Below, in pieces: positions 16,600 through 53,846 of a stretch of 64,000 nt of DNA. Position numbers and translations under genes: made by a program. The stretch lies in the IMG/VR virus record IMGVR_UViG_3300008116_003012, positions 32,001-96,000 of that record; one strand, written 5' to 3'. The stretch comes from a virus. The notes below the pieces were generated by a model. The model saw only the letters and a list, made by a program, of their open reading frames with translations, did not search any database and was not told where the DNA came from. How positions within the stretch are numbered: position 1 is the stretch's first letter; each line of letters begins with the position of its first letter.

Positions 16600-16638
16600 T
16601 GTATCTCCATTTACAGTATTTACCGTAAATAGCCTAAG

Positions 16639-18285: not shown

Positions 18286-18286
18286 A

Positions 18287-20995: not shown

Positions 20996-20998
20996 AAA

Positions 20999-22078: not shown

Positions 22079-22110
22079 AAAAAACTCCTTTGATAATATA
22101 TTTATTTGTT

Positions 22111-23505: not shown

Positions 23506-23552
23506 ATGTTTCCTTAGTTGTACTATATTTATGCACCATTTTTAAATATCCT

Positions 23553-24671
23553 TTAAGCGAATGTAGCATTTAGAGTGTACCATTTGCCGCTTTGAACACC
23601 AGGAATAGAGTCTCTAGTGCAAACAAATTCTAGTGAAGTTTGACTGCTTAGTCTAAATCCAATATTTTCTCCTAGAGTGTTAATTTCATATCCGTCATTA
23701 GGATAAACACTTACATTTAAAAGACTATCATTTCTAACGATAATTCTATACCCCTTTGGAGCACCGTTAGGTAAAATTACTCCTGGAGCAGGATTTCCCG
23801 GAGCAGGAGCACTTACATTAGTAATTACACTAACACTCTTTGTTAGTTGATAGGCTCCTGCTTGAGTAGCTCCTGATGCTGTAATATTGTCTTCTACACT
23901 GTATGTTATTAATCCAGAGACTTCTAATTCTCCTAGAATTCCTACACTAGTTAAGCTAGAATTTAGTACATTAGCAGCTAATGTATTACCGGTTAGAGTG
24001 TTTGCGGCTGCGGTAAATGTTCCTGAGCCGCCTAGCGTTATAACTTGGCCGTTAACTGTAATACTACTGTTAGCCAGCATTGTGTTAGTCACTGTGCCAG
24101 TGTCAGTTGTATAAACACCGTTTGTAACAGTTGCAGCATTTCCTGTTAAGTTACCGTTAAAAATATTTGCAAATATTTTATTAAATCTAGTTCCGCCTGT
24201 GCCTAAGTTACTTTCAATGTCAGTCTTAACAATAGTATTAGGTTGAGCAGTTATACTAGTTTTTTGTAGGCCAACAGAGACATTGTTATCTATGTTGTTG
24301 CCTGTTGTTTGAATAGTGAATTTAATGTCATTAGTTGGACTAACTCCGCTGGCTCCAAGCTGAGTTCCGTAAACTATTAACTGATCTCCTTCAGTGTATC
24401 CATTGCCGCCATTAACTACTACGACTCCCGTGTACCTAGGAACGTTAGGACCGCCGCTGAACAACGGAACATCTGTGTAAGACACATTAACTACAGCACC
24501 GTAACCATTTCCTGTTACTGTAGTAACAGCAGCTTGAACCGTTCCAACACCAGCAACTGGAACACCGCTGTCTATTGTAAATGTAGTTGATAATTTTAAA
24601 GCATTTTGTCTTCTTGAAAGAACAGTTGCGCCATCTTCAAAATCTTCAAATAATTGATTGACACCTGCTAG
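23553..24671 (-). CDS. C-terminal segment of the giant virion protein (second frame)
   Basis: The frame of ORF 23553..24485 stays open upstream to about 24671 (AGVNQLFEDFEDGATVLSRRQNALKL...) with no convincing RBS/start. It continues the upstream giant ORF after a +1 shift. Confidence 0.65.
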   Translation of the reverse strand, partial: LAGVNQLFEDFEDGATVLSRRQNALKLSTTFTIDSGVPVAGVGTVQAAVTTVTGNGYGAVVNVSYTDVPLFSGGPNVPRYTGVVVVNGGNGYTEGDQLIVYGTQLGASGVSPTNDIKFTIQTTGNNIDNNVSVGLQKTSITAQPNTIVKTDIESNLGTGGTRFNKIFANIFNGNLTGNAATVTNGVYTTDTGTVTNTMLANSSITVNGQVITLGGSGTFTAAANTLTGNTLAANVLNSSLTSVGILGELEVSGLITYSVEDNITASGATQAGAYQLTKSVSVITNVSAPAPGNPAPGVILPNGAPKGYRIIVRNDSLLNVSVYPNDGYEINTLGENIGFRLSSQTSLEFVCTRDSIPGVQSGKWYTLNATFA

Positions 24672-27600
24672 CTATTTGTGCCGGTGCCGCTGCACCTGTT
24701 CCTAAATTACCTACAAAACTGTTAGCATTGATGTTTTGAATTTCTGCTAGAGATACACCTGCATTTTTAATGCCTACCCAACCGTCAGTAACTTCAAAGT
24801 TTGCACTGTCAAAACTTGCTAGGCCACTTAATGCTTGTTTTTGTGCTGCTGTACCTGTAGGAGCAGCGCCAGCAGTTGCAGACAGTTGCATTGAAAGTTT
24901 GGATTGAACTATTCCTGCTGTTGCACTAATGTCATCATTGACAATGCTGTTATTGGCTATTTGGAAATCAATATAAGAATTGTTTAGACTTTCAACAGTT
25001 GCACCAGTAGAATGTACAGCGCCAGCAGTTTCAAATTTAGCTCTTGTAACATTATCAAATCTATTAGCAACAGTAGTAATAGCTCCATAAGAAAATATTT
25101 CATTTCCTATTCTTAAGAATCCATTGTTAGGGAATCCTGTAACATCGTCTACTACAATACCTCCGCTTACACTAGATTGAGTAGTTCCTATTATTCCAGA
25201 ATCTATAACAGGCAATACTGTAATACCTCCTACAAGTAAAGCTGTTACAGTAGTGTCAACAGTTGCACTAAGCACACCTCCGACTGTGCTACTAATAATT
25301 GCAGGACCAGCTCCAGTAAACACTGGTAACTGACCTTTGTTAGTAGATATTACAGCAACATCTTTTAATTCTGCAAAAGTATCAGACTGTTCAACTAAAT
25401 TGTCAACATATCCTTTTGTTGCAGCATCGGTGTCTGATGAAGGTAATGCTAGGTTAATAATTCTATGAGGAGTAGGAGGATCACCGCCTCCCATATTTAG
25501 ATCCCCGCCCATTGGTAAAGTACCTTGTAGATCTAAGAATCCGCTACCAGCAGGTATTCTTTGACTGTCAGTAACAACACCTCCGTTGTGTGTAATACCT
25601 AAACGTCGATCAATATAACCCCTAACTGCACTTTCTGTTGGAACAGTATCTTCAGCATTGTCAGTCATAGTGACATCTGTAGAGAATTCTTTTACAGTAG
25701 TACCTCTCTTAAATCCAATACCGTCTAAGTTACTTAGAGCAATACTTGCAGCAAAAGTAACAGTGCCTGTTCCTTGGTCTACGCTAAAGAATCGTCCTAC
25801 ACGGAATATACCGTCTTGGTCTGTACTTACATAGAATACGCGACCTTGTGTTTCTTCTCTAACTTCTTGTGTAGGTTCCGGAGGTGAAGCAGGAGAACCA
25901 AACACGTTGTTAGGATAGTTACTACTGTTGTAACCGCCAGTACCAATATCTAAAAAGTCATGTCCTGTTGCACGGCAAGTACTAATATTAACAGTAATTT
26001 CTGCAGGAGATTCTGCTTTTACACCTGCTCTTAAAACAGTTGATTGTACTGTTGGCAAACTTTGATAGAGGCCGGTGCCAGTAACAACACTTCCGGATCC
26101 GTATGCTATATCTTCTAAATCAACATATGCAGACTCTGCTCCGCTTTCGTCAGTGTAACCTGTAATTCTAAATGTTTTTCCAGCATGTGCTAAAATAAGA
26201 TTTCCTGAATTTAATCTTCCTTTGGTAAAATCGCTCTGTATAGTTTTTATAGCAATTCTAGTATCGCCTACTTTTGAGCCCATAGTTTTTAAACCACCGT
26301 CTACATAGTCAACGTCGTTTAATTTTAATTCATTAGATTGTAATATGGCATAATTATAACTTGTATCAAAAGTTAATATTGCTGTGTCACCGTAAGAAAC
26401 AGTACCTGTTCCTGGAGTTGCAGCAAGAACATTATCACCGGGATTGTTGTATGTAAAACTGTTAGGAGTCGGAACAGAAATAATAGTTATAGAAACATCA
26501 TTAAACGTATCATCTGTTGTACATCTAACTTCGTCAATAGAATCTCCAGGATTTAATCCATGGGGTTCTGAAACTGTTACTGTTGCAGTATTACTAGCAC
26601 GTGAAACAGTTGAAATTGCCTTTTGGATTAATAAATTTCCTTCAATTGGGCTATTTCTAGTATAAGCAAGTGTTCTATATACTGTTCCTTCTTCAGCAGG
26701 GTCAGTAAATTCTAATGCTGTCGAAGGTCGTGTAGGTCTAATTACATTTATTCCGGTAAATTTAAAATTCTGTAAACTTCTTATAATTACCAATTGTCCG
26801 TCAGTTAATGGAGCACTTATTCCGCCTGTTACCGCATCAGCATTTAAATTTAATTTAAGCACAGGTCTAGTACCTAATACACCACCTGTGTCAACACCTT
26901 CTCCTACAGAAGTAGTAAGTTCAACATTACTTACTTCATATCTAACAATGTCGCCTAAGTATGTTATGTCAAACGTTGCACCAGTTCCGGTTCCGCCATC
27001 GGAAAGAGTAGTTACTGTTCCTTTGACAGTCGGGTATCCACCAACGGGATTTATGCTGTAATCTCCAACTTCAATAATTTCAAATCTAGTAATTATACCG
27101 TCGCTAGGTCCTGTAGGTGCTAGTTTTACAGGATCATTATCAATTTCTATTACCCTGATTCTAGTAGTTTTTCCATTAGGATATAATGTGCCGCCTACTA
27201 CATCTATAAATTCTTCCTTAGAATATCCTAAACCTCCGCTAACAATAGTTACATTGTTTGGATTAGTTGGAGTATTAACAACTGCACCTGATCTAGTATT
27301 TGAAGTATCTATTTCAATTTCAGATACATTCTGAGGTGCAAAACTATAATTGTCAACATATATACTAATTTCTCCTGCTACGTTTTTAGCAGCAAAACTT
27401 CCTCTTCTATATATCTTAGCAACTTGTTGAGTGTCATTGGCTAATGCTACTGGATCAGGAACCTCATTAGGATCACGTCCTGCTGCCCTCATTCCGTACT
27501 TACCGTATGAGCTATTACCTGCAACACTTCGAATTTGAGAACCGTTTAATGCATAGTAACTAGTCCAGTTATAGTAGGTAAACACAGATACAAGTTCTGC

Positions 27601-30600
27601 AATACCGTTGTTGGTACAAATTACTCCGTAGCCTAAATCGTTAACCTGTGTATAGTCGTTAGCCAACATACTTCTGTTTCCAGGAGTTTCGATAATTATA
27701 TCAATTCCTTTTATATCAAAAGTAATAGAACCTGTTGTTGTATGAGCTTTGTCTAGTGTAATAAAATCTTCTGTAACAGAAACAATTTTTGCTCCGGCTG
27801 CAAGAACACCTGTTCCGCTAACTTTAGTTAATCGCATTCCTTTAACTAGCCCAAGCGTACTGTCCATAGGAATGGTAAATTGACCAACAGTAATGTTTGC
27901 ATTAGATGTTAAATTAGTTGCATCTGGAGTTATTTCAGAACCTAAATAATCTATAAATGGAGTTGAATCATCTAAGATTACTTCAGCAGTAGCAGTGCCA
28001 GGATCGTAAGTAGATACGTTAATCTGATATCTTTCTCCATTTATGTAAAATGCATTAGGAACTTGAATCTCTCTAACATTAAGTCCGCCTATAGTTAGAT
28101 TGTATTGATCAGTAGTTGACAATACTTTGGCAGGAAGATTTCCACTGAATCCGTCAATAAACATTCCTCCCCTAAAGCTTTGTTCGTTAACGCTTCCGCT
28201 CAAGCTGGTTGCAGTTTGGCAGTATGGAGATTTAGTTTGAATTTGACCTTCTGGATCAAGAACCATCATAAAGCCGCCGTGACCTTGGCAAGTAATGTTA
28301 CGCAGGATAGTTCCGTCGTTCATTAAGAACACATCCATGTCTTTATTTTCTTTAGGAGGATTGTTAACTCCTATAATAATGTTCTGTATACCTGCAATTA
28401 AATCTGCTACAATAGCTGCAACTGTAGGGCTAGCAGAAAGCAATGGTTGTACCAAAGTATTGATGCGTCCGATGCCTGCAAGAGTTTCTGTTAGTTGAGC
28501 TGTTATTGCAATTCTAGAACTGGCGTTTCTCTTGTAGGAATAACCTGCTCCTAAAGATCGTTCAATACCTCCATCGGTTATATCGTCAGCTAATGCTTCT
28601 ACAATATAGCCTACATCTCTTGCACACAACACACTGTCATAATCTAAATCTGGATAAGTTGCGTTTATATAAGACACAACTTGATTGGAAATATTTGTTT
28701 TAGCAGCCAATAAGATTCCTGCCTCAACAGTATGGCCGCCAGTTTTTGCAATAGTATCATCGAAAATACCGCTGAGTCCAGTTGGGTCAGATAGATAGTG
28801 ATATCCAAATTTGTTGTCTTTTGGAGCTAGACCTGAACTGTTTAAACCTCTTATAGTTGCCCCAACTAATTTAGTTTGCGGAACTTTATCAATTTCAAAA
28901 CTAGTATCATCTCTAAATCTAGTCACTCTGGTTAAATTCTGGAATCGGCCTGTGCCTGACATTACTCTTAAGTACATGCCAACGGTTAACTTGTTTACTG
29001 TTCCAGTAGACAATGTTATTACATTTCCTTTAATTGTGCCAGGGGACGTTTGAGCATCAATCGCTTCACAACTAAAGCTGACAGAACTTGTTGTTCCAGT
29101 TATTACAGTGTATGTACCGTTGTATGCAGATGGCACTGCACCGCTAACGGTTATAGTAGTACCGTCCGGGAATGGAATACTAGCTTGCGGAGCAAATGAC
29201 AAAGTTGCAATGCTACCAGTACCAGTTGCACCTGTACTAACTAATTCGTTTGAAGATGCTGCTGCTGTTTGAGATAAGAATGTTCTTGACAAGCCGTCAA
29301 ACTCGTCATCTCTATAGAAGTAGATATTAGCCCATGGACTTAAACTTTGTCCTGCAGCCGGTCTAATAATTACACGTCTAAATTCATCGCCCTTGATAGA
29401 TACGTTAGTAGCTATTCTAATTGGCAATTGTTCGTAATACACTCCACTTTCTATTCTAATTGTCACTTGTTGTTCAGGAACAGGCTGACCGTACTCTAAT
29501 TCTTCGCCTGGAATAAATTCTAAAGGAGTTCCAGGTTGCGCTGTTCCGTTAGCTACAATGTCGCTTATCGATGCAAAAAATTTAGTTATTAAAGGTAATG
29601 TTCCTTCTTCTGCTTCGTTTCCAGCTGTAGATTGGCTAATAGTTCCCCTCTTTCCAAATGCTCCGGCAGTTGTAGTTGAACTGATTGTATTATTCACTAA
29701 TATTTGTTGCATTAACAATTTTATGTAATTAATACCATCTAATGTTTGAGAAAGTTGCTCTGTAGGTAATGCAGAAGCTGCGCCTCTTCTATAAGCTTTT
29801 GCAGCTTTGATAACATTTGAATTTCCGCCGTAAAGCACATCTTTTTTAACTGCTTCTACAATATAGCCTACATCTCTTGCACACTTAACTTGATCGTAAT
29901 CAACTGTAGTAAGTTTAGAATCTATGTACAAAACAACTTCGTTTTTTATAAATTCTAAATTACTTTCTAATTTTGAAGCAGCATCTATGTAGCCAGTTTG
30001 AAAATAAACTATATCTTTAGTATCATGTAGTAATTCTACAATATATTGATCGTTAACACCACTGACTCCTACATAGTTTATTACTTTACCTGTAGCTCCG
30101 CTTCCTAATCCTTTAATGATACTGCCTTCTCTTAAATCTCGGTTTTCAACATTTATACTTTGATCAACACCTTGACCGTCAGTAAACACGTTCAATGTTC
30201 TAATTGATCCAATACCTGAAGTTAAAGAATTAATATAAGCTTTATATGCGTTGCTTCCGTATGTTAGGGGTTGTCTATAAGGACCTGGTTCAGTCTCACT
30301 TATTCTTATCATTTCTTCTGCTTTTTCGCAAGCCTTGCTTAGGCTAGCATAAGCAGAAGAAAATGCTCTTCCTTGTCTTTCTTCTGGAATGTTTAGTTGT
30401 TCATCACTTCCTGTTGTAGAAACAAAAAGATTGTTAGGACTTACATAGCTTGAACTATCAACATAAAGTTTAGTTGCTGCTTGAAGGTCATCTAAGCCAA
30501 AAGGTGTTCCTACTCCTGAAAAACTTCCTGGGTGATCAAATAAAATTAAATCACCTTCCATGTTATCACCTTGTCGACGAACAGTGCTCTTACGAGGCAA

Positions 30601-31806
30601 GGATTCATCGCTTATCCAGTTTCCAGAAAGTGTAGGATCGTATGCAGCATCTACAAGTTGTTCATCTCCTCTAAATTGAGAAACTAAACTAAATGTTAGG
30701 TCTTGTCCTGGACTTACGCCGCCTAGACTTGTTCCAAGTATTTTAAGATCATCACCTTGAACATATTCATCATCCCCAAAATCAACAAAAGTAATAATAA
30801 TATTATTTTCAGAGTATATAGGATTGTTATTAGTTTTTTCTACTCGTACTGTTGCTCCAGATCCGATGCCAGTAACAGTTGTTACGTTTAATTCTTCATA
30901 GATAAACGGAACAGATAGCCCTGTTCCAGAAATACTAGTAGGATCAACATTGTATACAGTTTGACTAATCTCAGGATCAATGTTAACAACTATGCGAGTG
31001 TTGTTAAAATTAACATCATCAATGGCTTGCTCTCTAGAAGGATATACTGCTAATCTATCATCATCGTAATATCGAAGATAGTAAGTGTCTTCGGTGATTA
31101 GTCCAGTTGCCGGAGTGTTTCCTGTATTTACATAAACAAATGCTGCACCGTTAATTGAAGTATTAAATCCATGTCCAGGTATAACGGCATACCCGTCTTG
31201 ATCCCAATTATCAACTGTTAAAGAATATTCAGATACATCTTCAGGTTCAGAACGAACTCTGATGCGTCCACCTATACCTGTAAAACCTCCTGTTTGCACA
31301 TATCTACGATCAGCATATCCTCTAGTTATTACTAGGTCATCTTCACCTATAGATGTATTGTGTAACGTATTGAATAAGTTTCTAGCTTCTGCACTAGGGT
31401 TTGCAATATTGCCTATAGCAAATTGATTACCATTTAGGTGATTTCCTAAAACTGGTTCGTCGTCATTAACTAATCTTCCGCCGGTTGTAGTAATGACAAT
31501 TTCATTTTCGTCAGCATGATTAACCAGTATTCCTTCTCCGCCTACTAATTTCTTAGCAACTAATGCATCGGCAAATTCACTTGAAACAATAACTTTATCA
31601 GCATCAGAACCGAGGTCTCCTCTTGGTACTCCATTAGGGAATCCGTCCGGTGTATCATCCAAATCTCCGAAAGATATCGTATCGCCTGATCCAAATATTG
31701 CAAAAAGTTGTGTAAAATTATCGTTTACTTTTCGAAAAGATTCACGAATACTATCACCAGTTCCGTCGTTACCCTGTGTACCAATGTCGATAGTTTGTCT
31801 TGCCAT
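24646..31806 (-). CDS. Giant virion structural protein (N-terminal 2386 aa, interrupted by a frameshift)
   Basis: IDIGTQGNDGTGDSIRESFRKVNDNF N-terminus, AATK.YVD fibre motifs, parallel beta-helix-like region (GVYYEQLPI...SIKGDEFRR), GGAG RBS and TAAATA upstream. Confidence 0.8.
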   Translation of the reverse strand: MARQTIDIGTQGNDGTGDSIRESFRKVNDNFTQLFAIFGSGDTISFGDLDDTPDGFPNGVPRGDLGSDADKVIVSSEFADALVAKKLVGGEGILVNHADENEIVITTTGGRLVNDDEPVLGNHLNGNQFAIGNIANPSAEARNLFNTLHNTSIGEDDLVITRGYADRRYVQTGGFTGIGGRIRVRSEPEDVSEYSLTVDNWDQDGYAVIPGHGFNTSINGAAFVYVNTGNTPATGLITEDTYYLRYYDDDRLAVYPSREQAIDDVNFNNTRIVVNIDPEISQTVYNVDPTSISGTGLSVPFIYEELNVTTVTGIGSGATVRVEKTNNNPIYSENNIIITFVDFGDDEYVQGDDLKILGTSLGGVSPGQDLTFSLVSQFRGDEQLVDAAYDPTLSGNWISDESLPRKSTVRRQGDNMEGDLILFDHPGSFSGVGTPFGLDDLQAATKLYVDSSSYVSPNNLFVSTTGSDEQLNIPEERQGRAFSSAYASLSKACEKAEEMIRISETEPGPYRQPLTYGSNAYKAYINSLTSGIGSIRTLNVFTDGQGVDQSINVENRDLREGSIIKGLGSGATGKVINYVGVSGVNDQYIVELLHDTKDIVYFQTGYIDAASKLESNLEFIKNEVVLYIDSKLTTVDYDQVKCARDVGYIVEAVKKDVLYGGNSNVIKAAKAYRRGAASALPTEQLSQTLDGINYIKLLMQQILVNNTISSTTTAGAFGKRGTISQSTAGNEAEEGTLPLITKFFASISDIVANGTAQPGTPLEFIPGEELEYGQPVPEQQVTIRIESGVYYEQLPIRIATNVSIKGDEFRRVIIRPAAGQSLSPWANIYFYRDDEFDGLSRTFLSQTAAASSNELVSTGATGTGSIATLSFAPQASIPFPDGTTITVSGAVPSAYNGTYTVITGTTSSVSFSCEAIDAQTSPGTIKGNVITLSTGTVNKLTVGMYLRVMSGTGRFQNLTRVTRFRDDTSFEIDKVPQTKLVGATIRGLNSSGLAPKDNKFGYHYLSDPTGLSGIFDDTIAKTGGHTVEAGILLAAKTNISNQVVSYINATYPDLDYDSVLCARDVGYIVEALADDITDGGIERSLGAGYSYKRNASSRIAITAQLTETLAGIGRINTLVQPLLSASPTVAAIVADLIAGIQNIIIGVNNPPKENKDMDVFLMNDGTILRNITCQGHGGFMMVLDPEGQIQTKSPYCQTATSLSGSVNEQSFRGGMFIDGFSGNLPAKVLSTTDQYNLTIGGLNVREIQVPNAFYINGERYQINVSTYDPGTATAEVILDDSTPFIDYLGSEITPDATNLTSNANITVGQFTIPMDSTLGLVKGMRLTKVSGTGVLAAGAKIVSVTEDFITLDKAHTTTGSITFDIKGIDIIIETPGNRSMLANDYTQVNDLGYGVICTNNGIAELVSVFTYYNWTSYYALNGSQIRSVAGNSSYGKYGMRAAGRDPNEVPDPVALANDTQQVAKIYRRGSFAAKNVAGEISIYVDNYSFAPQNVSEIEIDTSNTRSGAVVNTPTNPNNVTIVSGGLGYSKEEFIDVVGGTLYPNGKTTRIRVIEIDNDPVKLAPTGPSDGIITRFEIIEVGDYSINPVGGYPTVKGTVTTLSDGGTGTGATFDITYLGDIVRYEVSNVELTTSVGEGVDTGGVLGTRPVLKLNLNADAVTGGISAPLTDGQLVIIRSLQNFKFTGINVIRPTRPSTALEFTDPAEEGTVYRTLAYTRNSPIEGNLLIQKAISTVSRASNTATVTVSEPHGLNPGDSIDEVRCTTDDTFNDVSITIISVPTPNSFTYNNPGDNVLAATPGTGTVSYGDTAILTFDTSYNYAILQSNELKLNDVDYVDGGLKTMGSKVGDTRIAIKTIQSDFTKGRLNSGNLILAHAGKTFRITGYTDESGAESAYVDLEDIAYGSGSVVTGTGLYQSLPTVQSTVLRAGVKAESPAEITVNISTCRATGHDFLDIGTGGYNSSNYPNNVFGSPASPPEPTQEVREETQGRVFYVSTDQDGIFRVGRFFSVDQGTGTVTFAASIALSNLDGIGFKRGTTVKEFSTDVTMTDNAEDTVPTESAVRGYIDRRLGITHNGGVVTDSQRIPAGSGFLDLQGTLPMGGDLNMGGGDPPTPHRIINLALPSSDTDAATKGYVDNLVEQSDTFAELKDVAVISTNKGQLPVFTGAGPAIISSTVGGVLSATVDTTVTALLVGGITVLPVIDSGIIGTTQSSVSGGIVVDDVTGFPNNGFLRIGNEIFSYGAITTVANRFDNVTRAKFETAGAVHSTGATVESLNNSYIDFQIANNSIVNDDISATAGIVQSKLSMQLSATAGAAPTGTAAQKQALSGLASFDSANFEVTDGWVGIKNAGVSLAEIQNINANSFVGNLGTGAAAPAQIASRCQSII
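28594..29884. repeat. 34-bp perfect direct repeat (28594-28627 and 29851-29884)
   Basis: TGCTTCTACAATATAGCCTACATCTCTTGCACAC occurs twice and encodes CARDVGYIVEA in both copies. Confidence 0.85.
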
Positions 31807-33051: not shown

Positions 33052-33346
33052 AAAATTATTTGGTTTCGATCAAGAAACTATTAAGGCAGCTGGAGTACAA
33101 ATTGAACAGGCACCTTACAAAGTACCTGAGCCAGTAGCTCCGACTCCAATCCCACTAGTACCAGAGGCAGTACCAATGGTAGCAGTAGAAAAGCCAGCAC
33201 CTGTTGTTGAAGCTGCTCCCGCAAAGCCAGCTCGTAAACCACGTGCTCCAAAAGCGCCTGTCGCAGAAAAAGCAGCCCCTGTTAAGAAGGCTGCTGCAAT
33301 TAAGGCTGCTCCAAAAGCTAAAACACCTCGTTCAAAGAAGGTTTAA
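33035..33346 (+). CDS. Pro/Ala/Lys-rich basic protein (histone H1-like tail)
   Basis: PAKPARKPRAPKAP...KKAAAIKAAPKAKTPRSKKV. Confidence 0.7.
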   Translation: MFTFIKKLFGFDQETIKAAGVQIEQAPYKVPEPVAPTPIPLVPEAVPMVAVEKPAPVVEAAPAKPARKPRAPKAPVAEKAAPVKKAAAIKAAPKAKTPRSKKV

Positions 33347-34357
33347 TTGTTTAGCCTGCTGATGTAGGCTAAAACTGGCAATATTTTTGCCTTTGCTTTC
33401 ACACATGATATCATGTGTACCCAAAAAGCTCAGTGCCCATTCGTTCACTGCTGTATTCCAGTAGAAGTTTGAATGTGCTCTGAGCTTTTGTTTTTTGTGC
33501 CCAGCTTCTAGCAATGCTGTATAAGCAGGTAGTGTTTTATCGCAATGTCCTGGCAACCATTCTTCACGACTGACTGAATAATGTACTACAGGACGAACGC
33601 CGCGCCAAGAGTCAATTACACGTAGAACTCTATCGTCGGAGGGTTGAATGTAGTCTCCTGTACGGACCCAGTGATGGTGTATATCAAGCACGAGGGCGCA
33701 ATGCTTTTGCAGTTCGAGACTGCTTTCGATTCCCCATGCGTTTTCGTCATTTTCGATGGTAATGCAGTTTCTTGCTTCTGGAGTGAGTCGTGAAAGAGCG
33801 TCGATGATACCGGCTGGACCTCTTCGACCCGAGATGTGGACATTGATTTTAAAGTCCTGAAACGATTTACCAAATCCCATCCATCGGGCCATATCCACAT
33901 GATATTCAAATTCCTCAATAGATCGATTTACAATATCATCTGACTCAGATGCCAACACGCAAAACTGCCCAGGATGCATACTAAGCCGAACACCCATCTT
34001 GCGAGCCAAATCGCCCACGGTTCCAAAGTGCTTTTCTGCATAGGCTCTAACATCGGATAGCCCATAGAAGAACTTCCAGCTAGGCTCAGTGTATACAGGA
34101 AGTATATCGCTGCTGAGTCGTACCATTCTAAGATTTTCATCAAGTGCTCCTACACGTTCTACCAGCTTGCGAACAGCTTCAATGTTACCTTTCATTAGGT
34201 CCCATAGTTTTTCTTCAGCTACGCTCTGGCTCTGTCTATTTAACCAACTGACAGTAGTACTGCCAGTATTATACTGTTTAGCATCATCTTTGGGTTTAAT
34301 ACCGTTAACTTGATCAGGAGTGTCAATCCACTTGCAAGCAAAACCAATACGCTTCAT
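33332..34357 (-). CDS. uvsE: UV damage endonuclease UvsE/UvdE
   Basis: RIGFAC, RLSSD, RLSMHPGQF, NVHISG, IENDE, LDIHH, HYS, AHS, MCESK. Confidence 0.93.
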   Translation of the reverse strand: MKRIGFACKWIDTPDQVNGIKPKDDAKQYNTGSTTVSWLNRQSQSVAEEKLWDLMKGNIEAVRKLVERVGALDENLRMVRLSSDILPVYTEPSWKFFYGLSDVRAYAEKHFGTVGDLARKMGVRLSMHPGQFCVLASESDDIVNRSIEEFEYHVDMARWMGFGKSFQDFKINVHISGRRGPAGIIDALSRLTPEARNCITIENDENAWGIESSLELQKHCALVLDIHHHWVRTGDYIQPSDDRVLRVIDSWRGVRPVVHYSVSREEWLPGHCDKTLPAYTALLEAGHKKQKLRAHSNFYWNTAVNEWALSFLGTHDIMCESKGKNIASFSLHQQAKQLNLL

Positions 34358-34373
34358 AAAAATTAATCAAATA

Positions 34374-34417
34374 AAAAGGACATAATGTATTATAACATCT
34401 ATGTCCTTTTAAGTCAA
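34374..34417 (-). promoter_or_regulatory. Hairpin whose loop is the -10 box of the uvsE promoter
   Basis: TTGACT (34417-34412)-17 nt-TATAAT (34394-34389). Stem AAAAGGACATA(g)ATGT/ACATTATGTCCTTTT encloses exactly TATAAT. Confidence 0.75.
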
Positions 34418-35602
34418 TCAATCTACTAGCCGAACTAGTTTCATTGCAGTAGCAGGACTCAGTGTCCAACCTAGGTGCCCATGTCCTGTATGATAATAGA
34501 CATCGGGTGTGTTAGATGCCTGCACTATGGGCATCATGTTTGGAGTCATAGGCCGTAAGCAAGCCCAACTTGAATAGTCACTAGTATTAATTTTTGGAAA
34601 GTTTTCATGAACCCAATTTAACAAAGGTTCAATTCGATCTCTGCGTATGTCATAATTTTCGCCTGCAAGTTCCGCAGTGCCTGCAACACGGAAACGATTG
34701 CCTAATGTGCTGGTAACAATCTTAGCTTGATCATCTAGTAGACTAACTTTAGGCACATGCCGCATGTCTTCTTCTTGAATATTGATAGTGATACTATATC
34801 CCTTGACTGGGTATATAGGCAAACTATCTCCGAACATACTAGCAATCTTTACGGATCCAACACCTGCGGAAACTACTACAGTGTCAAACTGATCGAATAA
34901 GTCTTGAGAAAAACTGCTGTTTATTTCTAAGTCAAAAATAAACTCTACACCATATTTCTTTTCTAATACGTTTGACAGTTCAATGCAGAATTTGTGTATG
35001 TCTCCAGTCCAATCGCTAGGAGTCCATGCACCGCCTATTACATCTTCTAAGTCTCCAAGTGCGGGATCTAAACTAGTAGCTTGTAATGGACTTAGCATAT
35101 TCCATTCGCAACCGTAGGCATTATACAGTTCTTTTACATCGTGAGCATTCTGTAGGTACTGCGGATCTTTATAGAAGTGCAATATGCCGCAGTAACTTTG
35201 ATCAAACGCAAGACCTTCTTCCTCTATAATTTGTTTGTAGAGTTTTCTAGATTCGATACCTAATCTAATAGTTTCAGCAGTGTTTCTGGCATAGTCACCT
35301 TTAACAGTATTCCAGAGAAAACTAGTCATCCATTTGATCTTGCTAATGCTAGGGGTAGGACGAATCAGTAACGGAGCATCTTTTTGAAACATCCATTTCA
35401 TACCTTTCCAAACATTGCTCCAAGTAGTCCATGTTTCACTGTTGCTGACAGAAACTTGTCCACCGTTGGCAAAGCTAGTACGCATAGCAGGATGACGCTC
35501 TTGTTCAAGTACAGTGACCTTGTGACCTGCCCGTGCTAGATAATAGGCTGCTAATATGCCTGTAATGCCTGCACCAATTACTGCTATTGATCTATTAGTC
35601 AT
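34418..35602 (-). CDS. dadA: FAD-dependent D-amino acid dehydrogenase (DadA-like)
   Basis: GAGITG Rossmann motif, TSFANGGQVS, PIYPVKGYSIT, RVAGTAE, WACLRPMTP, TGHGHLGWT. Confidence 0.88.
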   Translation of the reverse strand: MTNRSIAVIGAGITGILAAYYLARAGHKVTVLEQERHPAMRTSFANGGQVSVSNSETWTTWSNVWKGMKWMFQKDAPLLIRPTPSISKIKWMTSFLWNTVKGDYARNTAETIRLGIESRKLYKQIIEEEGLAFDQSYCGILHFYKDPQYLQNAHDVKELYNAYGCEWNMLSPLQATSLDPALGDLEDVIGGAWTPSDWTGDIHKFCIELSNVLEKKYGVEFIFDLEINSSFSQDLFDQFDTVVVSAGVGSVKIASMFGDSLPIYPVKGYSITINIQEEDMRHVPKVSLLDDQAKIVTSTLGNRFRVAGTAELAGENYDIRRDRIEPLLNWVHENFPKINTSDYSSWACLRPMTPNMMPIVQASNTPDVYYHTGHGHLGWTLSPATAMKLVRLVD

Positions 35603-36253
35603 TTAATACTTTCCGCTAGCCAATACAATTTTACAAATATGCTCTAGTCGTTCGATATGTTCATAGGCACGCCATGGTGAGGTATCAATTGCTACAACAC
35701 CGTGTCCTTTAATACCTACAATATCATAGGCAATGTTGCCGTCTCGATCTAATTGTAATTGTTTGTGACATTGGTCCGCAAGCTCTTGACTTATAGGAGG
35801 TACATCTCCTACGTTAGGTGCTACCCGAGTATATCGATTGAGTTCTGGAAATGCGGCACTTACCGTACTCAAATCAATGCCGGCATGCATAGCCGCAATA
35901 CAGTAAGTAGGATGCACATGTACTACTACACGGACTTCCCCTGTATGCTGTCCCATTTCTTTTTGTAAACCAAAATGTAATGGTAGCTCTCCACTGGGCT
36001 TTAGGTTGGCGCTGATCTCAGTGTAGGGCAATTCTTTAACTGCATGATACAGGCGAGGAGGTTGATCCCAGTATCCTTTCTCGATGCCAATCTTTTTAAA
36101 TTGATCAGGTTGCAGTGTTTGTTTACGCACACCACTAGGTGTAATGTAAAAGTGATCCCTGTCGTGATGGCGAATACTTACATTACCATCACGACTTGTG
36201 ATCCAGTTACGCTTATAAGCGTCAACCATTATATCGCAAATTGTTTCTAACAT
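35603..36253 (-). CDS. Class II aldolase/adducin-family protein
   Basis: DGNVS, ITPSG, KPSGE.PLH, VVHVHP, GHGVV. Confidence 0.9.
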   Translation of the reverse strand: MLETICDIMVDAYKRNWITSRDGNVSIRHHDRDHFYITPSGVRKQTLQPDQFKKIGIEKGYWDQPPRLYHAVKELPYTEISANLKPSGELPLHFGLQKEMGQHTGEVRVVVHVHPTYCIAAMHAGIDLSTVSAAFPELNRYTRVAPNVGDVPPISQELADQCHKQLQLDRDGNIAYDIVGIKGHGVVAIDTSPWRAYEHIERLEHICKIVLASGKY

Positions 36254-36585
36254 TAATGATTTCTCTTCCCGTCAAATACGCAAACAAAGTAAAGATTATT
36301 AGATTTTGATTTGTTATGAACACGATGAAATGCACCGTCTGGAATTAATACAACGTCACCTTCTAAAACATTAAATCGCTTGTCGTCTATTTCTATCTCT
36401 CCTATACCCAATACAAAATAATAAACTTCTTCTTGTCCCGGATGACTATGACCTCTAGTGCTTTGTCCTGCCTTTAAGTCAGTAGAACTTAGCACTAGAT
36501 TGTTTAAAGTTTTATTATCTTTGAGCACATAGGTTTCGTTGTCTTTGACAATTTCCCCTCCTACATTGTATATGCTCAATTTCAT
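36253..36585 (-). CDS. Cupin domain protein
   Basis: GHSHPGQEEVYY...GDVVLIPDGAFHRV. Confidence 0.85.
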   Translation of the reverse strand: MKLSIYNVGGEIVKDNETYVLKDNKTLNNLVLSSTDLKAGQSTRGHSHPGQEEVYYFVLGIGEIEIDDKRFNVLEGDVVLIPDGAFHRVHNKSKSNNLYFVCVFDGKRNH

Positions 36586-36586
36586 A

Positions 36587-37114
36587 TTAGCCCTCGTAGA
36601 TTGCCGAATTACCTGCGTGTTCAAACACTTCCGCTGACTTTAATCTAACACCCGCACCTACTGGATAGCGAGCTTCAAACACACGACCGTCAGGGTGTGT
36701 CCAACCGCGACCTTCTTGATATGCAGTTAGAATTTCGTTCATAGTCTTGTATACTAATTCAGCAAACATTTCGCAGCCTACACCATCTACAATGCGTAGA
36801 TCAATGATACCCATGTTTTTAAATCCGCCTTGGATTTTGTTTAGTTCTACAAATGTGCCACGTTCCGGATCGTCTTTGCCAATTACCAATGTATGGTCAA
36901 ATTGCCATTCACTCCATTCTTTAAATGCTTTTAATCCACCGAAGTCCATAACCCAATTACGATCATCTAGTGTTTCAGATTCAAAGATTAATTTGATACC
37001 AATTGAGTATCCGTGTAGCATAGAGCAATGACTATGTGTGCTTTTCCACTGTCTAAAACAGCATGAGAGTCCTCTATCGTTACCGTATGTTTTTGTTGAA
37101 AGATATTTTGCCAT
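36587..37114 (-). CDS. queD: 6-pyruvoyl-tetrahydropterin synthase / QueD family
   Basis: HC..LHGY, WVMDFGGLK, FDHT, CE.FA, VFEH..NSAIY. Confidence 0.85.
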   Translation of the reverse strand: MAKYLSTKTYGNDRGLSCCFRQWKSTHSHCSMLHGYSIGIKLIFESETLDDRNWVMDFGGLKAFKEWSEWQFDHTLVIGKDDPERGTFVELNKIQGGFKNMGIIDLRIVDGVGCEMFAELVYKTMNEILTAYQEGRGWTHPDGRVFEARYPVGAGVRLKSAEVFEHAGNSAIYEG

Positions 37115-37193
37115 CTCTAGTCTCCTTATGTATGAGCAAGTTTGACGACATGCAGAGTTTATAAAGCGGGATGAATGACGTTAAAGACCGCTA
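37115..37193 (-). ncRNA. Candidate preQ1-I-like riboswitch / cis-regulatory RNA
   Basis: AGCGG-UC-loop-C-CCGCU-UUAUAAA, then a second hairpin GCAUGU/ACUUGC whose loop can pair with loop 1; sits just before the AAGGAG SD of queD. Confidence 0.55.
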
Positions 37194-37204
37194 TGATACT
37201 TATC

Positions 37205-38380
37205 TCAAGCTACCTTGAGCAAGATAATTTCTTCGTTAATGCGTCCGTTCATCTTAGTGTCAGTTGCATTAATTTCGTCTAGAAACTTTCGCAGTGCAAT
37301 TTTGCCAGCCGCTTTAAACTCTTTCAGTTTCTCTTCTGGCTTGCGAAGTGTCTTGCAAATGCTCTTAGTCTCATCAAAGCCTGTAATGGTAGTACCTTTG
37401 ATGCCTAGTGTGTTAAACTCTGAGGCCACATACTTGCCCAACTTACGGCTCTTGGTGTTGTAAATCCAAAGTTCGCCTGCGCCAATAATGTCAACAGGAT
37501 TAACACTAACAAGTTTCAAAGGTTCGTTAGTCTTCATGAACTTGAGTTTAGCAACCAACTTGTCCTTAGGCACTGCCTTGGTCTTACGAGGCGCACGATT
37601 GACTTTGGCTTCTTGCATCAACATTGTGCAGGCAGTTTGAATCTCAGTTAAGAAGATAATAAAATTCTTAATCTGTTTGCGGCTACGATGCTTGTATGCT
37701 TCTTTAAGTTGCTCGTCTGCCGAACCACTGGCCAGTTCTTCAAGTTCTGCCAAATCTCGAGCGTAGAAGTCACGAATGATACGTGCGTGAGCAGCCTTTG
37801 CGCCTTTGCCTTTCAGCAAGTTCAGCATCTTAAATGCTTTAGGATCAAAGTTTTCTGGATCATTCTGAAAGTTTTGATACGCTTCTTCAATCTCTTCTGT
37901 CATCAACATGGCAGCATCACGTACTCGTTCTTGAATAGTGACAACAGGACCTGTAGGCTTTGCTTCTACAACAACACCGCTTTCGTCAATGTCGTCTTTG
38001 CCTTCGTCGATAATTTTAGCAATCTCAGAACCTAACCAAGTGGCAGTGTCGCGACCTTTGTTAAAGTCAGGACGATTACTTTGCATACCACGAAGCAGAC
38101 AAGCGGCAACTGCACCGACTGTCATGCCGCAACGATTATCTTTTGTTTTCTTAAAACTTTGAACAGTCTTTTTGTCGTAACCGTTCTTGTTCATCCACTC
38201 GATGACTTTAACTTTGAGTTCTTTACCGCTAGACTCCATTCGGTAGTATTGCATAGCACCGTGAAAATAACGAAGAAACTTAGTTTCATCCCAAGTTTCG
38301 CAACCTGTCCAATCTGGACTATAGTCACGTTTAGCTTTTTCGCGGATTGCAATAGATGCTTTTTTAAGTTTAGTTGCCAT
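37205..38380 (-). CDS. Hypothetical phage protein
   Basis: 391-aa ORF with an AGGAG RBS behind a consensus promoter. Confidence 0.75.
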   Translation of the reverse strand: MATKLKKASIAIREKAKRDYSPDWTGCETWDETKFLRYFHGAMQYYRMESSGKELKVKVIEWMNKNGYDKKTVQSFKKTKDNRCGMTVGAVAACLLRGMQSNRPDFNKGRDTATWLGSEIAKIIDEGKDDIDESGVVVEAKPTGPVVTIQERVRDAAMLMTEEIEEAYQNFQNDPENFDPKAFKMLNLLKGKGAKAAHARIIRDFYARDLAELEELASGSADEQLKEAYKHRSRKQIKNFIIFLTEIQTACTMLMQEAKVNRAPRKTKAVPKDKLVAKLKFMKTNEPLKLVSVNPVDIIGAGELWIYNTKSRKLGKYVASEFNTLGIKGTTITGFDETKSICKTLRKPEEKLKEFKAAGKIALRKFLDEINATDTKMNGRINEEIILLKVA

Positions 38381-39724: not shown

Positions 39725-40396
39725 TTATTTTCTTTCGCCAAACAGTTGTAACAAGTTTAAAAACAAGTTAATGAAGTTAAGGTATAGTGTCAATGCACCT
39801 GCAACTTCGCCATTGCCAATTTGATCATAACTGAGCATTTCTCGAATACGCTGTGTGTCGTAAGCAGTAAGACCAAGGAAGATGATAATAGCCAATGCTG
39901 AGATTACCATTTGAAATACAGTACTACCGATAAAGATGTTAATAATGCTAGCAATGATAATTGCAATCAATCCAACAAACAATAAACTGCCTAGTTCAGA
40001 TAGATCCTTTTTAGTAAAGTATCCATAAAAACTCATAACTCCAAATAATACTGCGGCACCCATAAAGGCTGTAACAATACTGCCCATATTGTAAACTACA
40101 AAGATTGTAGCAAAACTTAGACCCATTAGTGCGGCAAATCCGTATAGCAAGAAGTATGCTACAGATTTACTCACTTTCTCCAAAGCAAAACTAATACCAA
40201 ACACTAATACTAGAGGTGCAAAAATTACTAACCATTTCATTGCACCAGTAAAGAAAAATGTCATCAGTGCCGCATTGGTTCCTACAAAATGACTGACTAG
40301 CATAGAAACAATAACTGCTAATCCCATATTTTTATAAACGCCAGCCATTGCTGTATTAATAGCACTAGCGTCTCGATAATTTGCTGTTGTGTACAT
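39725..40396 (-). CDS. Bax inhibitor-1/YccA family membrane protein
   Basis: About 7 TM helices, GLTAYDTQ, ALTLYLNFINLF. Confidence 0.9.
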   Translation of the reverse strand: MYTTANYRDASAINTAMAGVYKNMGLAVIVSMLVSHFVGTNAALMTFFFTGAMKWLVIFAPLVLVFGISFALEKVSKSVAYFLLYGFAALMGLSFATIFVVYNMGSIVTAFMGAAVLFGVMSFYGYFTKKDLSELGSLLFVGLIAIIIASIINIFIGSTVFQMVISALAIIIFLGLTAYDTQRIREMLSYDQIGNGEVAGALTLYLNFINLFLNLLQLFGERK

Positions 40397-48569: not shown

Positions 48570-49556
48570 ATGAACTTTACAGAAATACCATTTGAAAAAA
48601 TTGTGCGTTTTGGACAACGAACAATGTTGACTCGCCCGTTGTTTTCCACAAGCTGGATACTAGGACGTTTTTGCAATTACAAATGTAGTTATTGTTGGCC
48701 TTATGCACGTAGCGATCAACTTGATTATCAAAGTTTAGACGTATATAAGTGTACAGTAGATCAAATAAAAAGTCAAGCTCGTTTGAACGGATTTACCGAA
48801 TTTCATTGGAGTTTCAGTGGAGGAGAACCTACTGCTTACAAAGGGCTATTAGAACTAACCAAATATTTAGATGATGGTGTGCAGACTCCTTATCAAAGTG
48901 TACACATGACTACCAATCTATCACCTGGATTAGAATGGTGGAAACGTTGGTCTAATGCTACTTCTATGTTAGCTAGACGCAGTATTACAGCAAGCCATCA
49001 CGCAGAGTTTGCTAAAGAACAAGAGTTTGGTGATAAGATTTTACATCTAACAGACGAAAATGTTTTTGTCACTATCAATCAAGTAATGGTACCTGAGTTA
49101 TTTTTTCAACTGTACGAAAAACTAGAACGCTTTCATCGAAGAGGAATAAACGTAACGTTGAAGCCGCAAAGCGATCCTACAGCTAGTCGTATAGTTGATG
49201 GGTACACTGACGAAATGACGCAGTTGATGCGTACAGGTTTCCCGCAACAGTCACAAGGTGAAGATATATATCAAATATCACTGTTTGATAAAAGTAATGA
49301 AGAATACCTATTTGATCAAGCTGAGAGATTCAACGCATTTGGATTTAATAAGTTTAAGGACTGGTCTTGCAATAGCGGATATCAAAGTGTTATTATAAGA
49401 AGTAACGAAGTTAAAAGAAGTTATAGTTGTCATGACGGAGCATTAGGAACGTTAACAGAAGGGTTTAATCTTTTTAAATCTCCTAAGGTTTGTATAACTC
49501 CTACTTGTGTAAGTTCTGCAGACAGTAAAATACCAAAAATAAAAAATGAATATTGA
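48570..49556 (+). CDS. Radical SAM protein
   Basis: CNYKCSYC, FSGGEP, C-terminal Cys cluster (C.SG...SC...C....C). Confidence 0.9.
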   Translation: MNFTEIPFEKIVRFGQRTMLTRPLFSTSWILGRFCNYKCSYCWPYARSDQLDYQSLDVYKCTVDQIKSQARLNGFTEFHWSFSGGEPTAYKGLLELTKYLDDGVQTPYQSVHMTTNLSPGLEWWKRWSNATSMLARRSITASHHAEFAKEQEFGDKILHLTDENVFVTINQVMVPELFFQLYEKLERFHRRGINVTLKPQSDPTASRIVDGYTDEMTQLMRTGFPQQSQGEDIYQISLFDKSNEEYLFDQAERFNAFGFNKFKDWSCNSGYQSVIIRSNEVKRSYSCHDGALGTLTEGFNLFKSPKVCITPTCVSSADSKIPKIKNEY

Positions 49557-50145
49557 CACAGAACATTTACATCATTGGATGCAGGCTATTAGGCAAAGTC
49601 CTGATCCTATGCGTACAATGGACGCCTTTTGGAGTGGACAGCTTCGCAGCAAAGAATGGCTTATAGATTGTTTAGATGAGCATGTACACCACAGTTCTAG
49701 TATAGACATTCACGGAGGATGGGTAGGTGTACTGGCTAGTATGATTTTTCAAAGCAACATACCTGTTACTACTATTAGAAGTATAGACATTGATTCGTCG
49801 TGTGAATCTATTGCCAACATGATGAACAGACAAGAATATTTGAATAATAAATTTAGAGCTGTAACTGCTAACATGTGTGAGATTCGTAGCGACGCTGATA
49901 TTTCTATTAACACTAGTTTTGAACACATATCTCAAGACGATTATGATTTATGGTTAAGCGGATTGAAGCACAACAGTTTAATAGTACTGCAAACAAATAA
50001 TTACAAAATACCTGAGCATATTAGAATTTCTAAAAATTTAGAAGAATTTAAAGAACAAGCAGGTTTAGAAAAAGTTTTATATTCTGGAGAATTAGAGTTA
50101 CCTTTATATAAAAGATTTATGATTATAGGATATAAGAATGTTTAA
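49546..50145 (+). CDS. Class I SAM-dependent methyltransferase-like protein
   Basis: IHGGWVG, SIDID, INTSFEH. Confidence 0.7.
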   Translation: MNIDTEHLHHWMQAIRQSPDPMRTMDAFWSGQLRSKEWLIDCLDEHVHHSSSIDIHGGWVGVLASMIFQSNIPVTTIRSIDIDSSCESIANMMNRQEYLNNKFRAVTANMCEIRSDADISINTSFEHISQDDYDLWLSGLKHNSLIVLQTNNYKIPEHIRISKNLEEFKEQAGLEKVLYSGELELPLYKRFMIIGYKNV

Positions 50146-51229
50146 ATTTTCAGAACTACACGCAGTTCATTTAGAAATTACTAATAATTGTCAAGCAAAA
50201 TGTCCTATGTGTTCTAGGAACTACAGGGGAGGATTAGAAAATCCGTACATCAAAGTTAATGAATGGTCACTTGAAGATTTTTCTACAATCTTCAATCAAG
50301 AAGTATTAGATCAATTAAAGAGTATTTTCTTTTGCGGAAATTTTGGAGATCCTATTATCAACAACGACCTAGCAGAAATGTGTGGGTACGCTACTAACGG
50401 AAATCCAAATTTACAAATAAGAATACATACTAACGGCGGAGCACGATCTAAAGAATGGTGGAGGTCATTGCCCGCAAAACTTCCTAGAAATCATTTTGTT
50501 ATATTTGGGATTGATGGACTAGAAGATACTCATCACATTTACAGAGTTGGTACTAAGTATCAACAGGTTATCGATAATGCCAAAGCATTTATAGATGCCG
50601 GAGGGATTGCAGAATGGGTCTTTATTAAATTCAAACATAACGAACACCAAGTAGAAGAAGCAAGGAAAAGAGCTAAAGAATTAGGATTCAAACTATTTAC
50701 AGTTAAAAACAGTACTAGATTTTTAGAAGAAAAATTTAAAGTCCTTGATAAAAATGGAAACACTGATTATTACTTAGAACCTCCTACAAACAATCAAGTG
50801 ACTTTAATTTCACCTGATATGATTAAAAATTATAAGGTATGGGTTGATGATTCTAACATTGAATGTTACGTTCAACAAAATAGAGAAATATACATAGACG
50901 CATACAAAAATTTATTTCCCTGCTGTTTCCTTGCATCTACTCCTTATAATTATACAGAAGAAAATGACTTTACGTTCCCTGTAAGACAAGAAGTAAAAAA
51001 ACAGTATTCTAAATTAGTAGAATCGCTAGGCGGAATAGAAAATCTAAGTGCCACAAAGGTAGGTGTAAAAAATATACTAGAATCTAATTCTTGGCAAACT
51101 GTTTGGGATTATTACTGGAATGAATATAAACTAATTGTTTGTGCTAGAACTTGCGGAGTTAGTGCAAGCAAACCAATTTCAAAACCTAAAGATCAGTTCG
51201 TAGAAAGATCTAACCTTAAGGAAGAATGA
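50138..51229 (+). CDS. Radical SAM protein with a SPASM/twitch-like C-terminus
   Basis: CQAKCPMC, CGNFGDP, TNG, FGIDG, C...PCC...C..TC. Confidence 0.9.
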   Translation: MFKFSELHAVHLEITNNCQAKCPMCSRNYRGGLENPYIKVNEWSLEDFSTIFNQEVLDQLKSIFFCGNFGDPIINNDLAEMCGYATNGNPNLQIRIHTNGGARSKEWWRSLPAKLPRNHFVIFGIDGLEDTHHIYRVGTKYQQVIDNAKAFIDAGGIAEWVFIKFKHNEHQVEEARKRAKELGFKLFTVKNSTRFLEEKFKVLDKNGNTDYYLEPPTNNQVTLISPDMIKNYKVWVDDSNIECYVQQNREIYIDAYKNLFPCCFLASTPYNYTEENDFTFPVRQEVKKQYSKLVESLGGIENLSATKVGVKNILESNSWQTVWDYYWNEYKLIVCARTCGVSASKPISKPKDQFVERSNLKEE

Positions 51230-53432: not shown

Positions 53433-53846
53433 ATGCTTACACAAATTTTTTCAAAAGTAAACCCAGAAAAACTGTTACATTCTGTATATAGGCCCACTGT
53501 TAAGTCTAACAGAATAGACTTAGCACCTCCAGAACAGTTTTTGCAATTGTCAATAATCAATCCTTCACATGGAAAAAAATATGATAAGCACTATCATATA
53601 TGGAAAACTCCTTCATTTGATAAGACTATTGCACAAGAATCATGGGTTATAATATCTGGTTCAGTAAGAGTCAGCTTTTATGATACAGATAATCAATTAC
53701 TACAAGAAGAAATAATAGGGCCTGGAGAGTGTTCTATGACTTTTGAAGGAGGTCATACTTACGAAATCCTTGAAGAAAACACTTCAATCTACGAATTTAA
53801 AACAGGTCCTTATAACGGAAGAGAAAATGACAAACAGTTTTTTTGA
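53433..53846 (+). CDS. WbuC-like cupin
   Basis: KHYH...QESW...G...V.FYD...GGH...YEFKTGPY. Confidence 0.7.
   Translation: MLTQIFSKVNPEKLLHSVYRPTVKSNRIDLAPPEQFLQLSIINPSHGKKYDKHYHIWKTPSFDKTIAQESWVIISGSVRVSFYDTDNQLLQEEIIGPGECSMTFEGGHTYEILEENTSIYEFKTGPYNGRENDKQFF

Follow-up and report, generated by a model that had tools for sequence, protein, structure and literature searches.

The window analyzed here, i.e., the whole stretch of 64,000 nucleotides that spans positions 32,001 to 96,000 of the IMG/VR record IMGVR_UViG_3300008116_003012, is part of a 119-kb virus record with an estimated completeness of 33%. Its ORFs include tail fibres, an endolysin, a head protease, a clamp loader and a ligase, which points to a large tailed phage, and near-identical DNA is present in lake and freshwater metagenome runs. 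The window also carries a 2386-aa ORF (24646-31806, minus strand) with matches to tail-fibre PHROGs, a block of large structural ORFs (11264-24485), and a Bax1-I family membrane protein (39725-40396, minus strand; Pfam E 1.4e-52) that adjoins an ORF with a weak PGDYG domain. Three radical-SAM-like ORFs (at 48570-51229 and 62274-63692, plus strand), with sugar-nucleotide enzymes nearby (53743-55466), hint at another pathway, for modification or for glycans.

The element under study lies in a 90-nt gap on the minus strand, between the ORF 38380-37205 and the start, at 37114, of a 175-aa ORF (Table 1). The initial annotation had named the downstream gene queD, and the ATG does open a PTPS/QueD-like ORF. 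The protein scored 49.8 bits with Pfam PTPS (cut-off 22.4), matched the "QueD-like" phrog_2389 with an E of 2e-32, and shared 45% identity with the protein annotated as QueD in Pseudomonas phage Iggy, a phage whose DNA is described as carrying dPreQ0 (PMC10484667). With TIGR03367, the NCBIfam QueD equivalog, it reached 36.2 bits for a cut-off of 89.25. A C-x3-HGY signature was observed in 106 of the 106 proteins that follow a copy of the leader motif; the same HGY is found in Iggy QueD, and the solved QueD 7v0f has HGH at the place where the window protein has HGY. On the 3′ side of the QueD-like gene (33332-36624, minus strand) there are genes for a cupin, a class II aldolase/MtnB-like protein, a DAO-family FAD oxidoreductase (466 bits vs the 494-bit cut-off of the D-amino-acid dehydrogenase equivalog) and a UvdE endonuclease. 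In relatives other cargo follows the QueD-like gene, namely 2OG-Fe oxygenases in G001 and a B12-radical-SAM methyltransferase plus QueE in G002; since the downstream genes vary between genomes, the element goes with the QueD-like gene alone. In G002, a complete relative, a gene for a HIT-family protein is located between FolE and the motif (L211 2288-2683).

Table 1. Features of the leader and its flanking genes, in the order in which they are met on the minus strand (positions are those of the window)
Feature	Positions	Strand	Remarks
Upstream ORF	38380-37205	-	phrog_11903, function unknown; stop 12 nt before the element
P1 5′ strand, AGCGG	37188-37192	-	pairs with 37165-37169
L1, N-C-U (UCU here) and linker (UUA here)	37182-37187	-	linker length varies
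P2a 5′ strand, ACGUCAU	37175-37181	-	inside the P1 loop; pairs with AUGUCGU, 37145-37151
P2b 5′ strand, CA	37172-37173	-	C-G and A-U pairs with G37153 and U37154
L2, U37171 and invariant C37170 (candidate specificity base)	37170-37171	-	C in 42/42 and 54/54
P1 3′ strand, CCGCU	37165-37169	-	pairs with 37188-37192
L3, A-rich tail (UUAUAAAC) and invariant UC	37155-37164	-	three As invariant in the protein-ascertained alignments
P2 3′ strand, UG (P2b), C37152 (mismatch) and AUGUCGU (P2a)	37145-37154	-	covariation; shared with the sequestor
Sequestor 5′ strand, UGUCGUC	37144-37150	-	overlaps the P2 3′ strand; pairs with GAUGGCA, 37115-37109
Shine-Dalgarno, AAGGAG	37122-37127	-	inside the long imperfect sequestor hairpin
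Sequestor 3′ strand, GAUGGCA	37109-37115	-	contains the start codon, 37114-37112
Regulated gene, QueD-like PTPS-family protein, 175 aa	36587-37114	-	Pfam PTPS, phrog_2389

The initial annotation had read the minus-strand letters from 37193 to 37115 as a preQ1-I-like riboswitch variant with an additional kissing hairpin. The letters that it quoted are exact, and the 5-bp P1, the C directly before the P1 3′ arm, the A-rich tail after P1 (37164-37157) and the Shine-Dalgarno (SD) sequence 7 nt before the ATG were all found where it had placed them. The fold energy of this one leader equals that of shuffled sequences (MFE of -17.4 kcal/mol vs -17.98 kcal/mol for the shuffles; z 0.19; 109 of 200 shuffles folded as well), so that significance can come from comparison only. 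When the whole window was searched with Rfam at the gathering score no match was obtained, and the Infernal search against the Rfam preQ1 models, which the annotation had proposed as a check, was negative: at E≤10 the Rfam covariance models matched neither the window leader (37000-37320) nor the motif in 20 diverse copies.

The spread of the motif was then followed in IMG/VR. With the window protein as query 452 relatives were found, and in the best 80 of these 452 (78-98% identity), which were fetched, the motif was present before the QueD-like gene in 74 loci. One of the six other loci ends inside the motif at a contig end, and the remaining five, which retain the full upstream region and encode a protein 78-80% identical to the query, have a different leader and lack the motif. 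For a paralogue type that is ~40% identical (the L090 protein), the best 80 of 596 relatives were examined, and the motif was observed in 74 of the 75 testable loci; L573 is without it, and five loci have no upstream DNA. A pattern search with the conserved core yielded at least 120 matches, of which 80 were fetched. A covariance model built here (R1) was fitted by 76 of these 80 with E≤2e-8, and all 76 stand before a PTPS homologue (27-98% identity), the four matches that did not fit being also without the gene. Furthermore, one motif copy per genome was counted in five of five large phage records, of which two have a completeness of 97-100%. Two extra 20-bit hits of the covariance model (G002 and G003) were discarded as spurious; they lie inside coding frames and have no P1.

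In bacterial genomes the pattern gave at least 120 matches as well, and none of the 80 that were fetched was real (best covariance model score, 17.9 bits). The cultured phages ACP17, X1, vB_DshS-R5C, Phosso and Iggy have QueD-like genes and no motif (best score, 7.8 bits with the filters off). A blastn search with two aptamer variants against 50,697 GenBank phage records detected chance matches inside genes only (all E≥0.6), and blastn with the 2 kb around the leader detected no match. The motif is linked exclusively to QueD-like genes, and across IMG/VR, the bacterial-genome matches (80 fetched of at least 120) and the GenBank phages examined, its copies are found in uncultured phages only.

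The closest QueE (45.5% identity) is that of Synechococcus phage BUCT-ZZ01 (L580, 70505-72623), a cultured freshwater cyanophage with a cluster of QueE, a xanthine-guanine phosphoribosyltransferase-like gene, a hypothetical gene, QueD and FolE, without QueC; its QueD overlaps the preceding gene, and there is no leader before it. In lake DNA runs the summed contig depth has a peak of 154-209 at 37076-37177, i.e., over the leader and the first codons, vs 5-60 nearby, which fits many related strains sharing a conserved leader stretch.

The structure was analyzed in alignments of 42 (A1), 88 (A3) and 54 (A4) distinct leaders. P1 was paired in 100% (A1), 99.1% (A3) and 99.6% (A4) of the cases, and double changes were observed at 2-3 of its 5 pairs. 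In A1 the middle pair is CG in 29, AU in 7 and UA in 6 leaders, and the outer pair is AU in 37, UA in 4 and GU in one; in A4 a GC to CG change was detected at pair 2, too. The pair that closes P1 is G-C in 42/42, 88/88 and 54/54 leaders. The "UC" reported after the 5′ arm of P1 is really N-C-U: the C is invariant, and so is the U that follows it (42/42, 88/88 and 54/54, the invariance in A3 being partly forced by the search pattern, of which A1, A2 and A4 are free), and the first letter varies (A in 33, U in 32 and C in 23 of the 88 leaders). At the opposite end of the loop, the letter before the invariant C is U in 62, C in 17 and A in 9 of the 88 leaders.

The loop of P1 pairs with the 3′ tail to form P2, in which a mismatch (U37174 opposite C37152) separates a short part, P2b, from a longer part, P2a. 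P2a, which in the window phage has a U-U in the middle, showed double changes at 4 of its 7 pairs in A1 and at 7 of 7 in A3. The P2b letters CA and UG seem invariant at first, but they vary jointly. Among 86 pattern matches the U-A double variant was present in 11 flagged motif copies, 10 of which clearly belong to the family, and the C/A single variant was present in 0 of 77 pattern matches; likewise, a G-C double variant occurs in 4 of the 54 rows of A4, with no single variant. These double changes may represent few evolutionary events. When P2b is counted, L2 shrinks to N plus the invariant C37170, and L3 to 10 nt. P2 was only 70-83% paired in the alignment counts because the 3′ strand of one subgroup is shifted by 1-2 nt in the alignments; slid controls were 32-53% paired (A1, A3 and A4). 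The longest contiguous loop-tail helix (4.6 vs 3.5 for shuffled loops) tells little, since P2 is interrupted by a mismatch in many leaders. The covariation of the whole structure was 0.241 in A1, 0.305 in A3 and 0.190 in A4, vs 0.094, 0.140 and 0.100, respectively, in shuffles, and the observed value was reached by 0 of 500 shuffles in each alignment, a significance that is inflated by kinship, as in any shuffle test on related sequences.

A covariation check on aligned queD leaders, of the kind that the initial annotation had called for, thus upheld P1 and the pseudoknot helix P2 but not the second hairpin. This hairpin (GCAUGU/ACUUGC), taken together with the UU/AA kissing part, was 64.9% paired vs 62.6% in shuffles, and its covariation (0.065 vs 0.057) was reached by 47 of 500 shuffles. 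As for the loop-loop pairing that had been drawn, ACG/CGU persists as a part of P2, the UUU/AAA "kissing" extension falls away, and the long-range helix runs in another register. The annotation is upheld in that the phage leader, located immediately ahead of a QueD-like gene, is a structured RNA with conservation and covariation in the alignments, and we are practically certain that the motif is a real and widely conserved RNA pseudoknot. Its unpaired invariant letters, i.e., the N-C-U of L1, the C before the P1 3′ strand, three As within an 8-nt A/U-rich stretch of L3, and the UC, are typical of a binding pocket, and by analogy L3 may dock in the minor groove of P1.

The P2 3′ strand has an alternative partner in the start region of the gene. 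When the platform of the window leader was folded alone, the pairing UGUCGUC/GAUGGCA was seen in its MFE. The platforms of 107 distinct leaders, from UCUGC to codon 6, were folded in the same manner, and in 98% of the 107 MFEs the P2 3′ strand contributed 3 nt or more to a pairing with the SD or the AUG, vs 57% when the strand was shuffled; the AUG was fully paired in 68% of these leaders vs 37% with the P2 3′ strand shuffled. Of the 107 leaders, 50 have a CAU within this strand, and in these 50 the flanks of the CAU/AUG pairing covary: the pair next to the start codon is CG in 34, UA in 14 and AU in one, and at +5 it is UA in 34, AU in 4, UG in 3 and GU in 2. In other subgroups the SD is covered by a CCUAUG/CAUAGG hairpin, or the AUG by a 10-bp helix, and both of these start inside the P2 3′ strand. 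As judged by eye, several differently built platforms all reuse this strand.

As a read-out of the switch, the unpaired probability was dominated by weak local hairpins, and the opening energy was used instead. The mean energy to open the region from the SD to AUG+5 (107 leaders) was 8.35 kcal/mol with the P2 strand available and 4.45 kcal/mol with it withheld; the fall was of at least 2 kcal/mol in 73 of the 107, and in 8 of the 107 the energy rose. In the window's own leader it went from 6.95 to 6.38 kcal/mol only, because UUGCUCAU can re-pair with AUGGCAA. The energies averaged ~-5.9 kcal/mol for the P2 duplex and ~-9.4 kcal/mol for the platform. P2 and the sequestor share letters and are therefore mutually exclusive, from which we infer that a ligand-stabilised knot would turn translation on, i.e., that the leader is probably a translational ON switch. 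In the absence of the ligand the sequestor hairpin would hide the SD and the AUG, and the QueD-like protein would not be made; upon ligand binding the pseudoknot would hold the P2 3′ strand, the sequestor would lose its base, and translation could start. In one subgroup the P2 3′ strand would instead close a hairpin over the SD. In several loci (L004, L017, L021, L060, L080 and others) the P2 3′ strand contains an AUG in the reading frame of the gene, from which a 187-188-aa form would result; this AUG has no SD and was therefore taken as unused.

Regarding transcription, a TATAAT-like box (at least 5/6) was found in 54 of 102 distinct upstream stretches vs 5 of 106 coding controls, and in 30 of the 102 stretches it ends 6-10 nt before P1. 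The best box of the window, TATCAT (37198-37193), abuts P1, so that read-through from the upstream gene is as likely. A 12-of-12 match to a sigma-70-type promoter with a TG extension is located at 38438-38410 (minus strand), just before the ORF 37205-38380, and read-through from it could also supply transcripts of the queD leader. One 151-nt contig from a metatranscriptome library covers 37105-37239; as a contig only, for which DNA carry-over is possible, it is a weak hint that the leader is transcribed.

The genes of the pathway were also analyzed in motif-bearing records. FolE was found in 4 of 5 such records, the count for a QueE-like radical-SAM protein was also 4 of 5, and both genes are present in the record of the window phage, outside the window. 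In a set of 19 records with the motif, of which 5 reach a completeness of 97% or more, the Pfam TGT family had no match (0/19), and the Pfam QueC family had partial matches only, in 7 of the 19 (~17-30 bits, each covering less than half of the 210-position model), with no full-length QueC match in any of the 19. The DpdA and QueC proteins of Iggy had 0 matches in five records, a blank that shows little. Since neither a canonical QueC nor a TGT was found in the 19 records, the phage itself presumably does not make preQ1. The invariant C suggests, by analogy, a heterocycle with a guanine-like face as the ligand, the candidates being a 7-deazaguanine (preQ1, preQ0, CDG or DG) or a pterin, e.g., the QueD substrate dihydroneopterin triphosphate. 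The ON logic, when combined with the lack of a phage route to preQ1, argues against a simple end-product sensor and leaves room for the QueD substrate or for a CDG-type base.

We therefore favor, with moderate confidence, the reading that the leader is a riboswitch candidate, i.e., a small RNA that senses a ligand ahead of the QueD-like gene and combines the class I preQ1 fold plan with a sequestor-based ON switch; that it is a riboswitch at all is likely. The aptamer would consist of a 5-bp P1, closed by a G-C pair, whose loop pairs with the 3′ tail in an H-type pseudoknot, with a P2 of 2 near-invariant pairs, one mismatch and then 3-7 variable pairs, and with a 10-nt A-rich L3 after P1. Against the ON model it can be said that, for an end product as the ligand, biosynthetic genes are not usually switched on. 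A more specific proposal, which we make only tentatively, is that the motif constitutes a phage-only riboswitch class that has the preQ1-I fold plan, activates translation and senses something other than preQ1; the candidates would then be dihydroneopterin triphosphate produced by the phage's own FolE, or a CDG-type 7-deazaguanine. If this holds true, the phage would time the first committed enzyme in the pathway by which it modifies its DNA bases. Among the natural relatives of the preQ1 riboswitches the leader would then be the first of the ON type, and it would be one of very few virus-confined riboswitches.

The balance between knot and sequestor could also be set by a phage or host protein, e.g., the QueD-like enzyme itself, in which case the leader would be a translational operator that requires no small molecule. 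Both alternative structures were detected, whatever their effector may be, and the element goes with one protein family only, as would be expected from an autoregulatory site. We nevertheless regard an operator as unlikely, since the element is very small and its roughly one dozen invariant unpaired letters are placed as in the known small-molecule pocket described in PMC11625349; moreover, the element is kept before QueD-like proteins down to 27% identity, and a protein-RNA interface would have to track this divergence.

Less probable still is that the leader is an ordinary preQ1-I member, which would bind host-made preQ1 (or preQ0) and repress queD, and whose longer loop and P2 are missed by Rfam. 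In the class I preQ1 plan, as presented in the review PMC11625349, a 5-bp P1 is closed by a G-C pair, its 3′ strand is preceded by an invariant C and followed by an A-rich tail, and the loop pairs with the tail; this skeleton is common to both RNAs. Both preQ1-I (RF00522) and the leader motif are H-type pseudoknots of ~50 nt or less; in both the conserved G-C closing pair, which is the floor of the pocket in preQ1-I, is directly preceded on the 3′ side of the loop by a strictly conserved C (C37170 occupies the position of the specificity cytosine), a canonical pair (A-U, sometimes G-C) stands above the junction, L3 is A-rich and ~10 nt long, and the gene that follows belongs to the queuosine/7-deazaguanine pathway. 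The preQ1-I architecture that the initial annotation had recognized is thus retained in P1, its closing pair, the invariant C and the A-rich tail, but it does not extend to the L1 uridine, to an SD within P2 or to the Rfam score. The conserved U at the start of the preQ1-I L1 is replaced here by A, U or C, and the invariant C or U of N-C-U might have taken over its role. According to PMC11625349 the letter before the cytosine is U in type I and A in types II and III of preQ1-I, whereas the U, C or A found in the motif fits no single type. P2 has 5-10 layers vs ~4 in preQ1-I. Furthermore, in preQ1-I the SD letters or a terminator strand are part of P2, which results in an OFF switch, whereas the P2 3′ strand of the motif is without SD letters, pairs with the start region and competes with the sequestor of start codon and SD, and in the window phage the SD is at least 17 nt downstream of P2. 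The 0 Rfam matches at E≤10, for the window leader and the 20 diverse copies alike, and the lack of a canonical QueC and of a TGT in the 19 motif-bearing records also speak against ordinary membership. A ligand-independent structured leader, which would fix a translation level, make it temperature-dependent or stabilise the mRNA, is the least probable reading: the two states are similar in folding energy, and temperature or co-transcriptional folding alone could shift their balance, but helices alone leave the strict C and the invariant unpaired letters of L1, L2 and L3 unexplained, and thermometers rarely keep such letters.

If the leader binds a metabolite, as we favor, it is a riboswitch that lives only in viruses and controls an enzyme of the 7-deazaguanine pathway, and in it the smallest known riboswitch fold would have been rewired from OFF to ON by a P2 3′ strand that doubles as an anti-start strand. 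The proposal is readily testable, with an RNA of ~50-80 nt, natural compensatory variants at nearly every pair and a short panel of candidate ligands, and such an RNA could be of practical use as a compact ON-type part.

Phages are described as using the 7-deazaguanine pathway to protect their DNA from restriction (PMC6884629, PMC10516641). In Cellulophaga phage phiST and in Campylobacter phages, in which the pathway is reported to stop at CDG, FolE, QueD and QueE are present without QueC, as in the phages that bear the motif, and a distant DpdA3 transglycosylase is also carried (PMC10516641). The word "riboswitch" is absent from the main text of PMC10516641, "phage" occurs 0 times in the preQ1 riboswitch review PMC11625349, and a literature search conducted outside subscription journals and preprint supplements found no paper that describes the queD-leader pseudoknot. 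The leader has the plan of a class I preQ1 aptamer, but in three features of membership, i.e., the Rfam score, the L1 uridine, and the SD within P2 with its OFF logic, it departs from that class; the motif, for which Rfam 15 has no entry, is most fittingly classed as a variant that uses the preQ1-I plan. With respect to its expression platform, the counterpart is the adenine riboswitch of the "add" type, a translational ON riboswitch in which an aptamer strand doubles as the anti-SD/anti-start strand. In both RNAs one strand is common to the bound aptamer and to the hairpin that masks the ribosome-binding site, which the ligand frees in "add" and would free here; they differ in ligand class and host, and in that the "add" aptamer is a three-way junction and the one described here is a minimal pseudoknot.
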